From assembly GCA_964621445.1 (NCBI GenBank), contig CAZUNO010000016.1, positions 1 to 64,000 of the forward strand: DNA of 64,000 nucleotides, read 5' to 3'. The position numbers and the translations under genes are program-made. Each line of letters opens with the position of its first letter. Positions within the stretch are counted from its first letter, which is position 1. The notes under the pieces were generated by a model. It was not told the DNA's origin. It saw only the letters and a list, made by a program, of their open reading frames with translations, and ran no database searches. This document shows, one piece after another, positions 28,207 to 49,632 of the stretch. Source of the stretch: Candidatus Hadarchaeota archaeon. Lineage in GTDB: Archaea > CAYQAE01 > CAYVLA01.

Positions 28207-30507
28207 ATGCAGCTCCGGGTTCTCGTTCAGGGAAGGGTACAGGGCGTTGGTTTTCGGCCCTCTGTATATAGGTTCGCCAAATCCCTGGATTTGAGGGGTT
28301 ATGTCCGAAACCTGGGTAACGGGAACGTGGAGATCCTGGTTGAGGGCGACCAGGGGACGGTGCGGGAGTTCCTTTCCGGCCTGGAGGGTTCCCTCCCGCC
28401 CCTGGCGGAAATCCTGACCATGGAAACCGAGGTATTGGAGGGAAAACCGCAAGGGGAGTTCCGGATAGAACCCAGCAAGTCCCCCTCGGGAAGCACCTCC
28501 AATTCATATGTGCCACAGGACGTGGCGACCTGTGACAGGTGCCTGGAGGAGCTCCTGAACCCGGATAACAGAAGGCATGGCTATCCATTCATAACCTGCA
28601 CCGATTGTGGCCCCAGGTATAGCATATCCGGTGGCCCGCCCTTCGACAGGGATAGGACATCCATGAGTGATTTCCCAATGTGCGAGCGGTGTCGAGCCGA
28701 GTACGAGGACCCCGGGGATAGAAGATACCACGCCCAGACCATAGCCTGTAGGGACTGTGGGCCCGGAGTCCGGCTTATCGGTCCCCAGGGAGAGTTGATG
28801 GTCGGGAAACCAATTATCGGGGCGGCCAAGCTCCTGGAAGAGGGGGAGATAGTGGCCGTCAAGGGCCTTGGAGGGAGTCACATCGCCTGCCTTACCACTG
28901 ATAACTCCGCAGTTCGGAGGCTGAGGGAGATACTGGGGAGGCCCTTCCAGCCCTTCGCGCTAATGGCTTCATCGATCGAGGATGTGAGGAAATTCTCCTC
29001 GGTGAGTGAGAGCGAGGAGGAGATGCTCCTGAGCTGGCGGCGGCCGATCGTAGTCCTGGACAAACTCGATCCCTTCCCCCTCTCTCCGCTTCTATCTCCC
29101 GACCTCAGCAATATCGGGGTCATGCTGCCCTACACCCCCCTTCACCACCTCCTTCTTTCCCGGGTCGATGACCGGGCCCTGGTAATGACCTCGGCAAATG
29201 TTCATGGCGAGCCGATGATTCTAAAGGAAGGGATGATGAGGGAGAAGGTGGGGGAGATAGGTTACCTGCTCTGGCATGACCGGGAGATAAGGAACAGGGT
29301 AGATGACAGCGTGGTCAGGTTCCAGGGCGAGGACCCGGTTCTGATTAGGAGGAGCAGGGGATATGTACCACACCCGGTTAGTTTGGGGTGGAGCAGCGAG
29401 GATTGTATACTTGGGGTCGGTCCTGAACTCAACTCCGTGGCCTGCATAGCCAAGAATGGCCTGGCCTACCTGACCCAGCATATCGGTAACACATCAAACT
29501 TCGATACCTACGGATATCTGCGGGATGCGATATCATCGCTAATGAAAAACACCAGCACCCAGGACTTGGATGCCATTGCCCATGACCTTCATCCCCAGTT
29601 CCTTTCGACCCGACTTGCCAAGTCCATGTCCGGAAAATGGGGCTGTCCCACCTACGCCGTACAGCATCACTATGCCCATCTGTACAGCCTGTTGGCAGAA
29701 CACGGGTTGGAACCCACCACCAACGCGCTGGGGATAATCTGTGACGGGGTGGGCTATGGTAGCGAGAGGGAGTCGTGGGGAGGCGAGGTGCTGGCGGTTG
29801 GCGACGAGGAACTCAGGATGGGTTCGCTTCAGCCACAACCATTGATCGGGGGAGACCTGGCATCGCTGTATCCGGTCAGGATGGTGGTGGGTATCCTTGC
29901 CCGGGAGTACAGGGAGGCGAGGTTAAAGGCGGTGGTCAAAAAATACTGCCACGAGGGGCTTAGAAAGGGGGAGCAGGAGCTTGACCTCATAATCGAACAG
30001 CTCAAAAAGCGATTCAACGTCACCTGGACCACCAGCACGGGAAGGGTTCTGGATGTCATATCGGCTCTGCTGGGAATAAGCTATGAGAGGACCTACGAGG
30101 GCGAGGGCCCGATGCGACTGGAGGGCGTTGCCTCGCGTGGGGATCCCAAATCAGTCGACCTGCCCGTGGATGTAAGCAAGAAGGAGGGGAGGTACGTGTT
30201 CGACACCATGGCCCTGGTAAGAGGGGTGGTGGAGGCCCTGGAGGCCCGGCGCCCCAGAAAGGATATCGCCGCTTCCGCCCAGGAATCACTGGCAGAGGGA
30301 ATCGCGGAGATGGCCAACCTCTGCGCCCGGGAGATGGAGCCGGATTTCGTGGGCTGCTCTGGAGGTGTGATGTACAACCGGCACATAGTCTCCACCATAG
30401 AGAAGAAACTGGACCACCAGCTGGTGAGGCACACCTACCTACCCCCGGGGGACGGCTGTATCTGCGTGGGCCAGGTAACCGCTGCCTACAGGCAGAGGAG
30501 TTTATGA
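28207..30507 (+). CDS. hypF: Carbamoyltransferase HypF
   Basis: GRVQGVGFRP acylphosphatase domain, Zn fingers, KGLGG, QHIG, HDLHP, QHHYAH, DGVGYG, PPGDG. Confidence 0.96.
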   Translation: MQLRVLVQGRVQGVGFRPSVYRFAKSLDLRGYVRNLGNGNVEILVEGDQGTVREFLSGLEGSLPPLAEILTMETEVLEGKPQGEFRIEPSKSPSGSTSNSYVPQDVATCDRCLEELLNPDNRRHGYPFITCTDCGPRYSISGGPPFDRDRTSMSDFPMCERCRAEYEDPGDRRYHAQTIACRDCGPGVRLIGPQGELMVGKPIIGAAKLLEEGEIVAVKGLGGSHIACLTTDNSAVRRLREILGRPFQPFALMASSIEDVRKFSSVSESEEEMLLSWRRPIVVLDKLDPFPLSPLLSPDLSNIGVMLPYTPLHHLLLSRVDDRALVMTSANVHGEPMILKEGMMREKVGEIGYLLWHDREIRNRVDDSVVRFQGEDPVLIRRSRGYVPHPVSLGWSSEDCILGVGPELNSVACIAKNGLAYLTQHIGNTSNFDTYGYLRDAISSLMKNTSTQDLDAIAHDLHPQFLSTRLAKSMSGKWGCPTYAVQHHYAHLYSLLAEHGLEPTTNALGIICDGVGYGSERESWGGEVLAVGDEELRMGSLQPQPLIGGDLASLYPVRMVVGILAREYREARLKAVVKKYCHEGLRKGEQELDLIIEQLKKRFNVTWTTSTGRVLDVISALLGISYERTYEGEGPMRLEGVASRGDPKSVDLPVDVSKKEGRYVFDTMALVRGVVEALEARRPRKDIAASAQESLAEGIAEMANLCAREMEPDFVGCSGGVMYNRHIVSTIEKKLDHQLVRHTYLPPGDGCICVGQVTAAYRQRSL

Positions 30508-44237: not shown

Positions 44238-44756
44238 CTAGGGTACGGGAGGGCGGGTGGATTCGGGTCCGCGCCCCATGGCAACGGTACCCGTTCTGGC
44301 CATCTCCCTGATCCCGTGGGGCCTAAGCAAATCGACCAATGCCTCGATCTTTTGCTGGCCTCCGGTTATCTGCATGGTAAGCGAGGTGGTGTTTACGTCC
44401 ACGACCTTGGCCCGAAAGACATCGGCATAGTTCATCAGCAGGAGCTTGTCCTGCTCCGATTTGGCGTTGACCTTGACCAGGCAGAGCTCTCTAATCACGC
44501 TGGTTTCCCGGTCAAGGTCCGAGACCTTAACCACGTCAAGCTGCTTGTTCAGCTGTTTCTCCACCTGCTCAAGCACGGAATCGTCTCCCCTGACTATGAT
44601 GGTCATTCGGGAGATGTCCTCCTTTTCCGTGGTTCCAACCGCTATGGATTCGATGTTGAATCCCCTTCGGCTGAAAAGTCCGGCTATTCGGTGTAGTACC
44701 CCTGGCTTGTTCTCAACCAGGGCAGCTATGATATGGGGACGTATCACTTCAATCAC
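44238..44756 (-). CDS. ilvN: Acetolactate synthase small (regulatory) subunit
   Basis: VENKPGVL.RI.GLFSRRGFNIES, KQLNK, RELCLVKV, RTG. Confidence 0.95.
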   Translation of the reverse strand: MIEVIRPHIIAALVENKPGVLHRIAGLFSRRGFNIESIAVGTTEKEDISRMTIIVRGDDSVLEQVEKQLNKQLDVVKVSDLDRETSVIRELCLVKVNAKSEQDKLLLMNYADVFRAKVVDVNTTSLTMQITGGQQKIEALVDLLRPHGIREMARTGTVAMGRGPESTRPPVP

Positions 44757-46509
44757 CTCTGAATCTGAAGCTTTCTCGTTTGCACTTCTCGGATAGCAGC
44801 ATGTCGTCTATGCGACCGCCCGCCGGTACCATGGGTAGCACGTTCTCCTCTTTCTCTATCTTTATGTCCACCACGGTAACCACATCGCTGGAGAAGGCCT
44901 CATCGAGGGCGGGCCCCACATCTCCCGGCCTGGTGACCTTTATACCGTTCGCCCCGTAGGCCTGGGCCAGCTTGGCGAAGTCGGGAACTTCGGGAACGGC
45001 TTTTCCCTTTCCAACCCCGGCATGATCCAGAAGAGTGGCCGATGCCCTCTGATCATAGAACAGGTCCTGCCACTGATAGACCATTCCCAAGGTCCGGTTG
45101 TCCAGGAGGCAGATCACTATGGGTATGTCCTCGATAACGCAGGTCGCCAGTTCCTGTAACACCATCTGGAAGCTTCCATCCCCGGCCAGGTCCACGACAT
45201 TGAGGTCCGGACGGGCCACCTTGGCTCCTATGGATGCCGGGAAACCGAATCCCATGGTGCCCAGACCACCGGAGGATATCCAGCGATTGGGCTTGTCTAG
45301 CTTGAGGAAATGCGCTCCCCACATCTGGCACTGACCCACCTCGGTGACCACGATGGTATCGTCATCTATGATCCTGTTAAGCTCCTTCATGATCTTCTGG
45401 GGCTTGATCGGAACCTCGTCGTACTCGCCCTCCAGGCAGGAGTCACACTCGCGGATGAACTCCTTGACCTTCTCCCCATAGGCCGTCTTTTTCTTTCCAT
45501 GGTCGATCCTTGAGATATCGGCGTTGAGCTCGGACAGTACCTGTCTGGCATCGCCCACTATGGGAATATGGGTCTCTATGTTCTTGCCTATCTCCGCCGC
45601 GTCGATGTCGATGTGTATTAACTTTGCGTTGGTGCAGAAAGTTGATGTATCCCCGGTAACCCGGTCCGAGAACCTCATGCCCACTGCAACTATCACGTCA
45701 GCGTCGCTGAGTATGTCGTTGGCGACCTTTCTACCGTGCATGCCCACCATGCCCAGGGCCAAAGGGTGGCTGTCTGGGAACGATCCCTTGCCCATGAGGG
45801 TGACCGCCACCGGTATCATCAGGGATTCGGAGAGCTTCACCAGCTCCTCCCCGGCATTGGAGGCAATCACGCCCCCGCCGGAGATTATTATCGGTCTCTC
45901 CGCGTTAGCCAGCATCTTGGCGGCCTTCTTTATCTGGTTTGGGTGTCCCTTTGGGCTGGGCCGGTGACCCAGAATCTCGACGTCACGTTTGTACTCGAAA
46001 TCGATCTCCTCTTGCTGGGTGTCCTTGGGCAGGTCTATGTGGACCGGGCCCTTGCGACCGCTGGTGGCTATTATGAAGGACCTCCTGACGGTTTCAGGTA
46101 TCTCCTTCCCGCTGTTCACCATGAAGTTGTACTTGGTTATGGGCATGAATATGCCGACGGTGTCGGCCTCCTGGAAGGAGTCGTTCCCTATCATGCCCGT
46201 GGGCACTTGCCCGGTGACCGCTATTACCGGTATCGAGTCATAGAAGGCGTTGGCAATACCCGTGGTCAGGTTGGTGGCGCCCGGGCCAGAGGTCGCGAAA
46301 CAGACCCCGACCTTGCCGCTTGCTCGGGAGTAGCCGTCGGCGGCGTGGGATGCAGCCTGCTCGTGGCGTACCAATACGTGCCTGATGTCGGATTCATATA
46401 GTTTGTCGTACACATCGATCATGGCACCACCTGGGATGCCAAAGACGTGTTCCACTTCTTCCTTCTCCAGGGCCCTTATCAGGGCCTGTGCTCCAGGCAT
46501 TCTAGGCAT
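44749..46509 (-). CDS. ilvB: Acetolactate synthase large subunit
   Basis: FGIPGGA, RHEQ, TSGPGATN, SGGLGTMGFG, GDGSFQM. Confidence 0.96.
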   Translation of the reverse strand: MPRMPGAQALIRALEKEEVEHVFGIPGGAMIDVYDKLYESDIRHVLVRHEQAASHAADGYSRASGKVGVCFATSGPGATNLTTGIANAFYDSIPVIAVTGQVPTGMIGNDSFQEADTVGIFMPITKYNFMVNSGKEIPETVRRSFIIATSGRKGPVHIDLPKDTQQEEIDFEYKRDVEILGHRPSPKGHPNQIKKAAKMLANAERPIIISGGGVIASNAGEELVKLSESLMIPVAVTLMGKGSFPDSHPLALGMVGMHGRKVANDILSDADVIVAVGMRFSDRVTGDTSTFCTNAKLIHIDIDAAEIGKNIETHIPIVGDARQVLSELNADISRIDHGKKKTAYGEKVKEFIRECDSCLEGEYDEVPIKPQKIMKELNRIIDDDTIVVTEVGQCQMWGAHFLKLDKPNRWISSGGLGTMGFGFPASIGAKVARPDLNVVDLAGDGSFQMVLQELATCVIEDIPIVICLLDNRTLGMVYQWQDLFYDQRASATLLDHAGVGKGKAVPEVPDFAKLAQAYGANGIKVTRPGDVGPALDEAFSSDVVTVVDIKIEKEENVLPMVPAGGRIDDMLLSEKCKRESFRFRGD

Positions 46510-48127
46510 CTCTTTTTCCTCCTTTTCGCTTCTCCGTATGGAAAAGCCTGTTGATGGCCTCTATCATGGCCTCAACGCTTGCCATTACTATGTCTGTGCT
46601 AACTCCTCTAGCCGTTGTCAGGTTTCCCTGTTCATCTTGGACCTTAACTGTAACCTCGGCGACGGCATCGCTGCCTCCGGTTATGGCCTCCAGCCGGTAC
46701 TCCATGAGTTCGACCTTGGCCGACTCTCTCACCACGTTCTTTATGGTCTTGATAGCGGCATCCACCGGGCCGTCACCTATGTTGGAGCCGGATACCGGTT
46801 TCCCATGGAGGTTTAGCGACAGGGAGGCGGTGGGGATGGTTCGATCCCCGGTAACCACGGTTAGATTGCCGAGCTCCAGGGCACGTTTCTCCTCCGGTAC
46901 CCTGCCTATAACCGCTTCGGCGATGGCCATTAGATCGGCCTCGGTGATCTTCTTACCCATGTCACCTATTTTCTTGACCCTGCGGGAGATCTCGGAGATC
47001 TGCTTCTCGTCGCCATATATGCCCAGTTCCCTTAATTTTGCAGATATGGCATGAACGCCGGTATGCTTTCCCAGCACTATCCTCCGTTTGCTTCCAACCG
47101 TCTCGGGAGTGAGGGCCTCGTATGTGGAGGCCGAGCCGAGTATTCCGTGGACGTGTATGCCGGATTCGTGGGCAAATGCGTTTTCCCCCACGATTGCCTT
47201 GTTGGGCTGGACGGGGACCCCAGTAAGGCGGGATACCAACTGGGAGGTGGGGCATATCCTCTCGGTCACCACCCCGGTAGTGATGCCATAAAAGGAGTGA
47301 AGGGACATGACAACCTCCTCCAGAGAGGCATTGCCCGCCCTCTCTCCCAGCCCATTGACGGTAACGTGCGCCTGCTGGCCTCCGTTCTCGATGGAGACCA
47401 CGGTATTGGCAACCGCTAGGCCGAAGTCGTTATGGCAATGGACCGAGATGGGTATGCTGATCTCGTGGTTCAGACTTTCCACCAAACTGCCCATGGACCT
47501 GGGTATCATGACCCCGACCGTGTCGGGAACGTTAATCCTGTCAGCGCCCGACTCCTCTGCGGTCTTGAATACCCTGATCAGAAATTCGATCCCGGTTCTG
47601 GTGGCGTCCTCTGCAGAGAATTCCACGGTCACCCCATGGTCCTTGGCATAGGCAATGCCGTTTCCTGCCTTCTCTAGGGCCTCCTCCCTGGTCATCTTAA
47701 GCTTGTGCTTTAGATGAATATCCGAGGTAGCTATGAAGGAGTGGATACAGTCAACGCCGGCGTCCAGGCCGAGATCTATATCCTTGGTGCTCGATCTGGC
47801 CAACGCACACACCTCGGATTTCAGGCCCAGGGATGATATCTCCCTGAAGGCCTCCAACTCTCCCTCCGAGGTTGCCGGAAACCCGGCCTCTATGGTATCC
47901 ACCCCAAGCTCATCTAGAGCGGTGGCAATTCTGATCTTCTCATCCACAGTGAGGGAAACGCCGGGCGTTTGCTCGCCGTCCCTCAGTGTAGTGTCGAATA
48001 TCCTTACTCTCTCCGGGAGCTTGACGCCCTGGAGAGACCTTTCGTCATAATCAGAGACGTAGAACCCCGTCCCTCCGCATATTTCATCAATCCTTTGGCA
48101 GCCCGCTTTAACCCCGGTAAACGCCAT
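46502..48127 (-). CDS. leuA: 2-isopropylmalate/citramalate synthase with LeuA regulatory domain; true start uncertain
   Basis: DTTLRDGEQTPG, HCHNDFG, GERAGN, FAHESGIH, GPVDA; the ATG at 48127 lies inside the SRP RNA. Confidence 0.88.
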   Translation of the reverse strand: MAFTGVKAGCQRIDEICGGTGFYVSDYDERSLQGVKLPERVRIFDTTLRDGEQTPGVSLTVDEKIRIATALDELGVDTIEAGFPATSEGELEAFREISSLGLKSEVCALARSSTKDIDLGLDAGVDCIHSFIATSDIHLKHKLKMTREEALEKAGNGIAYAKDHGVTVEFSAEDATRTGIEFLIRVFKTAEESGADRINVPDTVGVMIPRSMGSLVESLNHEISIPISVHCHNDFGLAVANTVVSIENGGQQAHVTVNGLGERAGNASLEEVVMSLHSFYGITTGVVTERICPTSQLVSRLTGVPVQPNKAIVGENAFAHESGIHVHGILGSASTYEALTPETVGSKRRIVLGKHTGVHAISAKLRELGIYGDEKQISEISRRVKKIGDMGKKITEADLMAIAEAVIGRVPEEKRALELGNLTVVTGDRTIPTASLSLNLHGKPVSGSNIGDGPVDAAIKTIKNVVRESAKVELMEYRLEAITGGSDAVAEVTVKVQDEQGNLTTARGVSTDIVMASVEAMIEAINRLFHTEKRKGGKRDA

Positions 48128-48426
48128 TGGTGGGTTCGTCGTGGCAGACGGGTTGACCGGTCCTTACCTCGTCTCCGTGACCCTTCAAGCGCCAAACGTC
48201 CTTCCTACCACTGCTCCGTTCCCGGCCTGGTGGGGTTCGGAAAGCTAGGATGGTTACAGCCTCCTTCCGGAGACGGCTCCACCTCCGCCAGCCCTGAAGG
48301 ACGGAGAGTCAACGTTCGGGACTCGGGCCCTATCTACCACTGCCGAACCGCCCAAGGGTTTCGACCCCGCTTATAGGCGATTTCGGGCTACAGGAGACGC
48401 CTAGCCTCCCGCCTAGTCTACTGGGT
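48108..48426 (-). ncRNA. ffs: Archaeal signal recognition particle (7S) RNA
   Basis: Minus strand Alu domain CUAGGCGGGAGGCUAGGCGUCUCCUGUAGCCCGAAAUCGCC; helix 6 with GGAA loop; helix 8 CCGAACCCCACCAGGCCGGGAACGGAGCAGUGGUAGG; helix 1 GUAGAC/GUUUAC; TATA-like CTTAATA at about 48513-48507. Confidence 0.93.
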
Positions 48427-48549
48427 TTGGCCGCTGGCTGCCTCTGTCTTCGGCTCGGCAGCCGTGATCGGCTTCCGTGCCGAGGGACCTACATGAATAA
48501 TCGGGCTATTAAGTCTTACTTGAAACCGGGGCGTGGCCTTGCCCGTGGC

Positions 48550-49632
48550 TCAGGACTGCACGGTGAGATTTCCAACCTCTCGCAGGTCCAGTACCTCGGC
48601 GACGATGAACACTTTCCGGGTTCGGTTAACGCTGAACCTGATTCTAGTTGAGGGCAAATCCTGGGGTATGGTGAGCGAGGAGGTATTGATGACCTCGGAT
48701 CCCTCGATGGTTTTTCCCGCTACTTTGAAGGGATAGGTATCGCTCCCGAACACCGATACCTCCAGGGGCGGCCCATCCGGCGACCCTGAATAAAAGCTGA
48801 CGTTCGTGCCGAATGAGGCCCAGACCTCCAGGAATGCGGTTTCACCTGGATTCACGGTGTTGTTCAGGACGCGAAGGTTGAAGTATGATCTCTGAAGCAC
48901 GTCACGACCAAAGGCAGGCGTAAAATAGGTCTCGATAAAGGCAGCGGAGACCAACATGATTATGACCACCAGGAAGATGGACCATGCCCTCCTGGACCTC
49001 AGTATATTTCCCGCCCGTCGGTGAAAACTGTCCAGATCCCCCTTCTCAAGGAGATGATTTAGATTCACGGCGTGGGCATATCCCAGCGTGGCAGCCAGGA
49101 CTACGGCGGGCAGTTCCAGGATTCCATGGGGCAGGATATATGCAAGGTATATCCAGATGGCCCTTATGTCCAGACCCTGACCGGTGGAGAATAATCCCAG
49201 AACCAGGCCATTCATGAACACCACCGCCAGGGGTAATAGAAAGATGATCAGGGAACGTTCCTTATAGGTTTGGTTGCCCTCGCCCAATAGCCTGTGTATG
49301 AGGTCGGTAAACCTCCCGGTGCTGGCCGGGGTTTGATCCGAGCCCATTGCCCAGCGAACAAGGGCTACCCCGCCAAAGGCGGCGACAAGGGACACGAAGG
49401 TATTATTGACTAGCAGGTACATCGCCGTGACCGCCTCCTCGGTTCCCATGACCGGGGTGAGCGGTCCCTGTATGATTTCCAGGGGCTTGGAGATCCTAAA
49501 GTAGAGAGCATCCTGAAGCAGGGCTAGCAGGGGCTTGAATACCAGGTTGAGGGTCAGGCCGATGATAAGCCCGAGGGCTACGGCGATAAGGAAAACTCTC
49601 GCTGGTCGTATGTAACGGCTAATCTGGGTCAC
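48550..49632 (-). CDS. SpoIIM-family membrane protein with a soluble C-terminal beta domain
   Basis: YLLVNN, FMNGLVLG, ILPHGILELPA, AAFIETY.TP. Confidence 0.8.
   Translation of the reverse strand: MTQISRYIRPARVFLIAVALGLIIGLTLNLVFKPLLALLQDALYFRISKPLEIIQGPLTPVMGTEEAVTAMYLLVNNTFVSLVAAFGGVALVRWAMGSDQTPASTGRFTDLIHRLLGEGNQTYKERSLIIFLLPLAVVFMNGLVLGLFSTGQGLDIRAIWIYLAYILPHGILELPAVVLAATLGYAHAVNLNHLLEKGDLDSFHRRAGNILRSRRAWSIFLVVIIMLVSAAFIETYFTPAFGRDVLQRSYFNLRVLNNTVNPGETAFLEVWASFGTNVSFYSGSPDGPPLEVSVFGSDTYPFKVAGKTIEGSEVINTSSLTIPQDLPSTRIRFSVNRTRKVFIVAEVLDLREVGNLTVQS

Follow-up and report, generated by a model that had tools for sequence, protein, structure and literature searches.

Cutting at bulge-helix-bulge (BHB) motifs followed by ligation by RtcB is known from tRNA introns, pre-rRNA, one permuted signal recognition particle (SRP) RNA and two mRNAs. 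The present analysis concerns the SRP RNA gene of a Candidatus Hadarchaeota archaeon, located on the minus strand of a stretch of 64,000 nucleotides (assembly GCA_964621445.1, contig CAZUNO010000016.1, positions 1 to 64,000; hereafter the window). This gene is enclosed by a BHB and followed at once by leuA, ilvB and ilvN, genes of leucine and valine synthesis. Very probably, this uncultured archaeon and those most closely related to it excise the SRP RNA and close it into a ring.

The SRP RNA of Thermoproteus tenax and T. uzoniensis is described, in the accessible text of Plagens et al. 2015 (PMC4731332), as released by EndA, which cuts a BHB formed by leader and trailer, the product being circular. 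The present locus resembles that system, as far as the same text presents it, in its leader and trailer BHB, in its probable circular product and in the TTAATA-type box that would drive a leader-containing precursor. The Thermoproteus gene, on the other hand, is reported there to be permuted, with loss of helix 1 and a need for ligation to rebuild the helix-8 loop (PMC4731332), whereas here the gene is co-linear, the junction would cap an intact helix 1, a protein-coding operon follows and there is no terminator. In the 5' untranslated region (5' UTR) of Haloferax volcanii HVO_1309, according to the accessible text of Schwarz et al. 2020 (PMC7714728), a BHB intron is excised as a circle by EndA, and there too the piece within the BHB has a promoter on one side and a protein-coding gene on the other. 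As given in that text, this intron is 46 nt long, has no known function of its own and leaves exons whose ligation was shown; here an entire essential RNA, 319 nt in length, would be removed, and the ligation of the exons is a prediction.

Processing stems of the BHB type are where circular pre-16S and pre-23S rRNA arise (Danan et al. 2012, PMC3326292, accessible text), the likeness being that of a stable RNA freed from a polycistronic precursor by a flank-formed BHB and then circularised. For the 7S RNA of Sulfolobus and Halobacterium, on the other hand, the accessible part of that study (PMC3326292) gives only circular internal segments and no BHB excision of the whole molecule. A non-permuted, BHB-flanked SRP RNA was not found described in the literature searched, subscription journals and supplements lying outside the search. 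Eukaryotic intron-encoded small nucleolar RNAs are also stable RNAs lodged in the removed part of an mRNA precursor, with one promoter serving both; this is an analogy only, the spliceosome and exonucleases acting there and, by our reading, EndA and RtcB here.

The SRP RNA gene and its BHB

A preliminary description of the window had proposed that a non-permuted SRP RNA of 319 nt is enclosed by a BHB and released, probably as a circle. The Rfam model RF01857 matches positions 48423-48115 (minus strand) with 196.5 bits (E 9.5e-47, cut-off 96.5) over model positions 1-317. This is a full-length archaeal SRP RNA, co-linear and not permuted, with helix 1 present and paired, and it is the only copy in the genome; the marks of the Thermoproteus-type permutation, namely ends near helix 8 and loss of helix 1, are not found in it.

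Direct reading of the letters on both sides of this match confirmed the 5' flank GGCAGCC-A-GC-GGCC-AAA-CC (48442-48424) and the 3' flank GG-GGUU-AAA-GC-G-GGCUGCC (48115-48097) that had been listed as the two halves of the BHB. When paired, they give a central helix of 4 bp and two 3-nt bulges on opposite strands, bounded by an outer helix of 10 pairs on one side and by an inner helix together with helix 1 on the other (helices h and h'). Cuts are predicted at 48427/48426 in the 5' bulge and at 48108/48107 in the 3' bulge. The strand order is the same on each side (helix, central strand, bulge, helix), each bulge lying 3' of its central-helix strand, and three tRNA-intron BHBs of the same genome (Gly-UCC, Gly-CCC and Phe-GAA) show this order, the mirror order being seen in 0 of 20. 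This control is thin because only 3 of the 20 short-intron calls made by aragorn coincide with a strict BHB and many of the calls look false; being that noisy, the intron calls were rejected as a positive control.

For the comparison with related genomes, five species genomes of the GTDB phylum were considered, four of which share one order and family and are referred to here as the family. Together with six metagenome loci found by scanning for a 24-base SRP word, four of them new, these genomes supplied an alignment of 10 sequences, 8 of them distinct, and the structure test was performed on alignment A1 with 23 named pairs. The same flanks are present in all four family genomes, and the BHB, whose covariation in related genomes had been put forward as a check, is kept with pair-preserving changes in 8/8 distinct sequences. 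The fifth genome of the phylum (L023) has an A/T box directly upstream of its SRP RNA and no BHB.

Standard pairs were found in 95.1% of the pair cells of alignment A1, whereas a shift of the 3' partners by 1-3 columns left 24.2-48.9%. In the central helix 100% of cells form pairs although three of its four pairs vary, each changed on one side, so that the helix occurs as GGCC/GGUC, GGCC/GGUU and GGCU/GGCU. In the outer helix, 93.8% of cells are paired and two pairs carry changes on both sides, one exchange being G-C to A-U with the G-U intermediate in a sister sequence; for the inner helix and helix 1 the value is 94.4%. RNAalifold arrives independently at both of these flanking helices. Over the whole structure four pairs have changed on both sides, and in six of the eight sequences the bulges are exactly 3 nt and the central helix 4 bp.

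The specificity of the motif was assessed with a strict scan demanding a 4-bp helix, two 3-nt bulges, an inner helix of at least 2 bp and an outer helix with at least 8 of 9 pairs. A looser scan, with a 3-bp outer helix, matched 9-62% of shuffles and was for this reason replaced. The strict scan matched 7 of the 8 family loci and 5 of 106 other archaeal SRP loci (2/26 and 3/80), and 149 of 17,000 shuffled flanks. None of the five non-family matches is convincing: those in L028 and L257 are slips within a repetitive helix 1, and those in L029, L216 and L217 are A/T- or G·U-rich, with cuts distant from the SRP ends or unevenly spaced about them. The BHB at the SRP RNA is lineage-specific.

In L028 and L257, which belong to one genus (g18), the flanks extend helix 1 by about 9 pairs; the two genomes differ in these letters and still form the pairs, without bulges. 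SRP RNA may here be processed at a stem of another kind than the BHB.

RNA contigs of a relative give direct evidence that, in this lineage, the RNA is closed into a circle within the BHB. None of the RNA runs contained the organism of the window itself, the best-matching runs being DNA from a microbial mat and a hypersaline lake, and the relative's SRP RNA was found as contigs in four sediment metatranscriptome runs, with 83% identity over 222 nt (37 differences and 2 indels). In three of these runs (X12, X17 and X19) the contig is exactly 349 nt long and appears in differing rotations, its aligned part starting at record position 54 in two of them and 44 in one. The overhang past the SRP 5' end is not leader: it comes from the 3' strand of helix 1 at the SRP 3' end and runs via ...GGCU-GA and C-C into the SRP 5' end. 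Of the six bulge bases, three are retained at the junction, as predicted for cuts after the second base of each bulge. Locus L034, which has the same central-helix strand as the RNA contig, predicts a circle of 319 nt, made of 310 nt of SRP RNA and 9 more, and 349 equals 319 + 30 if the assembler word was 31 letters. Given such a word, the equal length and the differing starts are those of a de Bruijn assembly of a closed 319-nt circle. Both the co-linear 319-nt RNA and its probable release as a circle, as proposed in the preliminary description, are supported by the size and the junction composition seen in the relative.

Runs X17 and X19 also contain a more abundant contig (197 and 210 nt, depth up to 316). 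Its match to the window is confined to the conserved 5' domain of the SRP RNA (48360-48411), after which it continues into unrelated sequence; it probably represents the SRP RNA of another organism.

Precursor, processing and competing explanations

Both ends of the family's SRP RNA genes are bare of the usual signals. With an A/T box defined as an 8-mer having at least 7 A/T within 60 nt upstream of the SRP RNA, none was found in the 8 family loci, compared with 26/26 and 75/80 of the other archaeal loci. Likewise, a run of at least four T within 60 nt downstream is present in 0/8 family loci against 13/26 and 44/80 of the others, and over the 60 nt that follow the SRP RNA no family locus has even three consecutive T. 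On the upstream side the sole A/T-rich box is a TATA-like one situated 82-93 nt from the SRP start in 8/8 family loci (family consensus GTAAGA(C/G)TTAA(T/A)AGC), and transcription would start about 25 nt downstream of the TTAATAG box. Downstream, leuA-ilvBN begins within about 35 nt after the SRP RNA; leuA occupies this place in 10/10 aligned sequences, with its AUG 16-26 nt past the outer helix. The lack of an adjoining promoter-like box and of a T-run and the fixed synteny point to a precursor that would continue into leuA-ilvBN. Since the SRP RNA has neither a promoter box nor a T-run of its own and leuA lies at once downstream, BHB processing is the obvious route to both RNA ends. The features concerned are collected in Table 1.

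Table 1. Coordinates of the SRP RNA, its flanks and the adjoining operon in the window.
Feature	Position	Strand	Basis or remarks
Promoter-like box GTAAGACTTAATAGC, with TATA-like TTAATAG at 48512-48506	48505..48519	-	Conserved in 10/10 aligned sequences
Leader (5' exon) between the predicted transcription start and the BHB	48443..48485	-	Sequence reading; 5' limit predicted
5' BHB half: outer strand GGCAGCCAGC 48442-48433, GGCC 48432-48429, bulge AAA 48428-48426, inner CC 48425-48424	48424..48442	-	
Predicted excised and circularised RNA, 319 nt	48108..48426	-	BHB geometry; 349-nt RNA contigs of a relative
SRP RNA	48115..48423	-	RF01857, model positions 1-317
3' BHB half: inner GG 48115-48114, GGUU 48113-48110, bulge AAA 48109-48107, outer strand GCGGGCUGCC 48106-48097	48097..48115	-	
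Mini open reading frame AUG...UGA (MRRDGVLRL-stop)	48051..48080	-	AUG and stop kept in 8/8 distinct sequences
leuA (2-isopropylmalate synthase) frame, candidate slip site to stop	46502..48064	-	Pfam HMGL-like, HCS_D2, LeuA_dimer
ilvB (46509-44749) and ilvN (44756-44238)	44238..46509	-	Pfam TPP_enzyme_N/M/C (ilvB); ALS_ss_C with ACT (ilvN)

On the minus strand, leuA, ilvB and ilvN follow 3' of the SRP RNA, and ilvC is convergent to them; upstream of the SRP RNA, a gene for a SpoIIM-family membrane protein ends at 48550. The ilvB start codon (46509) and the end of leuA share 8 nt (46502-46509), and by this overlap translation of ilvBN may be coupled to that of leuA and to the control of its start.

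Several non-family loci without a T-run pass straight into a tRNA gene. In L002, L004, L005, L012 and L022, the apparent 5' end of a tRNA gene was seen by eye a few bases after the SRP RNA, with no T-run between them, which suggests SRP-tRNA co-transcripts matured by tRNA-processing enzymes in those archaea.

The leader contains a second GGCUGCC at 48463-48457, as read directly, and it had been proposed that the alternative hairpin formed with it gates the processing. Only one of the 8 family leaders has a counterpart, and the gating hairpin was rejected because it is not conserved. Another element of the leader (48488-48443), a UCGGC...GCCGA stem around a variable hairpin, is kept in most family members and might protect the 5' exon.

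As for the enzymes, the genome encodes RtcB as well as an EndA of 373 aa with two endonuclease repeats (contig 2). A second EndA-like gene of 507 aa, with two endonuclease-domain matches and a weak Sen54-type match at its N-terminus, lies on contig 9 at 28248-29771 (L038:520-2043).

The following course of events, leading from a promoter through a precursor to excision and closure of the SRP RNA with leuA-ilvBN as the remainder, is considered probable. A single promoter about 85 nt upstream would give a precursor comprising the leader, the SRP RNA and leuA-ilvBN. Leader and trailer would then pair into the BHB, with its outer helix of about 10 bp, its 4-bp central helix, its opposite 3-nt bulges and helix 1 inside. 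EndA would cut after the second base of each bulge, and RtcB would join the ends of the excised piece to give a closed 319-nt SRP RNA in which helix 1 is capped by a 7-nt loop. In this way BHB processing would substitute both for a promoter-proximal 5' end and for a terminator, and the rest of the RNA, probably after ligation of the exons, would be the leuA-ilvBN mRNA. In this scheme EndA and RtcB are the presumed enzymes, and the circle would be the working form.

It is conceivable, if rather doubtful, that the BHB only matures the SRP RNA and that the flanks are discarded, the leuA mRNA being a bare 3' product or coming from a weak promoter inside the SRP gene. In the metatranscriptome runs only the relative's SRP RNA was found; leader, trailer and leuA are not covered by RNA contigs and no exon junction was seen, as the discarding of the flanks would have it, and the contigs consequently say nothing about exon ligation. 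A CUAUAA-like stretch in the SRP 5' domain could serve as a TATA-like box for an internal promoter, but its conservation is explained by the SRP fold, and the SRP gene is G+C-rich and without another A/T box. The order and spacing of SRP RNA and leuA, fixed in 10/10 sequences, argue against discarded flanks. In addition, the accessible texts on rRNA operons (PMC3326292) and on the Haloferax 5' UTR (PMC7714728) describe the same enzymes as also joining the flanks.

That the circle is a passing intermediate, as is the case for circular pre-16S rRNA, and is reopened and trimmed to a linear SRP RNA with normal helix-1 ends appears unlikely. The contigs give the presence of the circle and not its proportion, and helix 1 is intact and co-linear, so that ligation would not be needed for function, unlike in Thermoproteus. 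Against a transient circle, three runs assembled a closed unit of equal length and not a linear contig with free ends, and the ends of helix 1 show no evident further motif for processing.

Several observations weigh against excision and closure at the BHB. Minimum-energy folds form 0/4 central-helix pairs in 10/10 rows, forcing the BHB costs 1.7-6.7 kcal/mol above the minimum energy, and RNAalifold joins the outer helix to helix 1 by an internal loop, without the central helix. As this helix never formed in any sequence, energy folding cannot decide on the BHB and was set aside as a test of it. The register of the 5' bulge is ambiguous in the window and in L036, the closest relative of its genome, where an additional base allows either the 3-nt bulge with a 2-bp inner helix and a 2x1 loop given in the preliminary description or a 4-nt bulge; the other six sequences are unambiguous. 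An indel in the outer helix keeps L011 from passing the strict scan, the observed percentage of pairs is attained by 4 of 500 shuffles, and the covariation is modest since the eight family sequences are close kin. Regarding the RNA, the contigs come from a relative seen as RNA only and not from the organism of the window, they leave the ratio of circle to linear form aside, the letters at their junction would be the same had both bulges been cut after the first base, and the length argument depends on an assumed size of the assembler word. Lastly, the transcription start, the read-through into leuA and the ligation of the exons are what we infer from the layout of the locus.

The energy folds, as well as the other archaeal genus (L028, L257) in which plain flanking pairs extend helix 1, would accord with flanks that merely lengthen helix 1 or form a stem for other nucleases, the likeness to a BHB being coincidental and the SRP RNA linear, but with 3-nt bulges and a 4-bp central helix exact in 6/8 sequences, every central-helix cell paired and the RNA junction located inside the two bulges, this is very improbable.

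The start of leuA

The first codons of leuA on the remaining RNA present a separate problem. No conserved in-frame ATG, GTG or TTG was found upstream of the conserved LeuA N-terminus. It had been noted before that the leuA frame is open across the predicted exon junction and that the sole upstream ATG (48494) is followed directly by TAG (48494-48489), and codon reading bore out both statements. A start in the spliced leader was rejected, its only in-frame ATG being this one, which is also probably upstream of the transcription start, and so was the ATG at 48127 inside the SRP RNA, whose frame is that of leuA in this genome alone. Stop codons between the SRP RNA and the N-terminus close the leuA frame of relatives, namely TAG (L011), TGA (L015) or a TGA overlapping the AUG (L031 and L033).

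An AUG out of frame with leuA, on the other hand, opens the mini open reading frame (mini-ORF) of 9 codons listed in Table 1. A Shine-Dalgarno (SD)-like GGAU(U/G)GA stands 6-10 nt upstream of this AUG (48080), the stop is UGA except in L034 and L035, where it is UAA, and GUUCUACGUCUCU is kept in 8/8 distinct sequences. The conserved LeuA N-terminus (FYVSDY...) is in the +1 frame relative to the mini-ORF, and a candidate slip site, GUU-CUA-C, is located at 48065-48059. A GGN codon varies synonymously in the AUG frame only, the leuA frame reading Gly, Val or Glu at this place. All eight sequences of the window's family thus show the sequence marks of programmed +1 frameshifting, that is a start frame, a protein in the +1 frame, an early stop and a conserved heptamer. 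This out-of-frame mini-ORF points to a +1 frameshift at GUU-CUA as the way in which leuA would be started.

A similar arrangement was found in Methanosarcinales, for which the sample comprised the 60 top-scoring of 101 genomes (L122-L181) and 7 loci (L050, L053, L054, L102, L109, L114 and L119), giving 61 distinct sequences. The out-of-frame AUG mini-ORF is present in 60 of them, and 51 lack an in-frame start. In all 61 the slip site is NUU (UUU in 35, CUU in 23 and GUU in 3) followed by a leucine codon (UUA in 53 and CUA in 8), and in 53 a stop follows 3 codons later. The core AGGGAUCGN-NUU-YUA-Y is nearly invariant; read in the AUG frame, its two variable bases are position 3 of an Arg codon and position 1 of the NUU codon.

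A candidate mechanism for both groups is that the P-site tRNA slips by +1, from NUU to UUY, with the leucine codon waiting in the A site, which would make this a leucine-sensing frameshift. In the accessible text of Atkins et al. 2016 (PMC5009743), the prfB +1 frameshift uses CUU-UGA-C with an internal SD and Ty1 a hungry-codon shift at CUU-AGG-C. The leuA start resembles these cases, as described there, in the SD-like purine run before NUU, in the slow or limiting next codon and in the early stop; it differs from them in that the next codon is a leucine codon in an archaeal leucine-synthesis gene, and in being known from sequence alone. A 2021 review of archaeal recoding (PMC8211752) lists, in its accessible text, a single proven frameshift, of the -1 type, and a frameshift in leuA was not met with in the accessible parts of the literature searched, from which subscription journals and supplements were excluded. 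Competing with frameshifting are non-AUG initiation of leuA, at ACG or AUC of a conserved Gly-Thr/Ile, and a mini-ORF that is a leader peptide, LeuA being started another way.

The idea of CUA as a rare codon was dropped, CUA making up 13% of Leu codons, which is too weak to use. The same applies to tRNA-Leu(UAG), of which none is present among the 42 predicted tRNAs of this 96%-complete metagenome-assembled genome.

At four LeuA-like loci of Bathyarchaeia (L072, L081, L104 and L120), a mini-ORF reading MGYCFI-stop or MGNRFI-stop lies about 60-40 nt upstream of DTTLRDGEQ. In this mini-ORF an isoleucine codon comes after UUU; relative to it the LeuA-like frame is +1, and the conserved WGIALSN N-terminal stretch has no in-frame start next to it. 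This layout may be an isoleucine-sensing version on a citramalate-synthase-like paralogue. In two loci of Thermoproteota (L057 and L060) the mini-ORF ends in WN-stop.

Combining both parts of the locus, the SRP RNA could be regarded as the BHB "intron" of an operon leader, in an archaeal form of a host-gene arrangement, one constitutive promoter giving a closed SRP RNA and a ligated leuA-ilvBN mRNA whose output would be set purely at translation, by a leucine-sensing +1 frameshift at GUU-CUA in the 9-codon mini-ORF. This complete scheme is put forward tentatively, as a possibility that has more against it than for it.

Implications

Taken together, both ends of a normal, non-permuted essential RNA appear to be formed by known machinery, and the SRP RNA apparently shares its promoter with amino-acid synthesis genes, an arrangement that is new while the enzymes are known. 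If the ring is the working form, the SRP of these archaea functions with a closed helix 1, which would bear on circularisation as a general stabilising strategy in archaea, beyond the repair of gene permutation. The locus also offers a natural test case of whether, in archaea, the mRNA exons on either side of a large excised RNA become ligated, and the start of leuA adds a candidate leucine-sensing frameshift in the family of the window and in Methanosarcinales.

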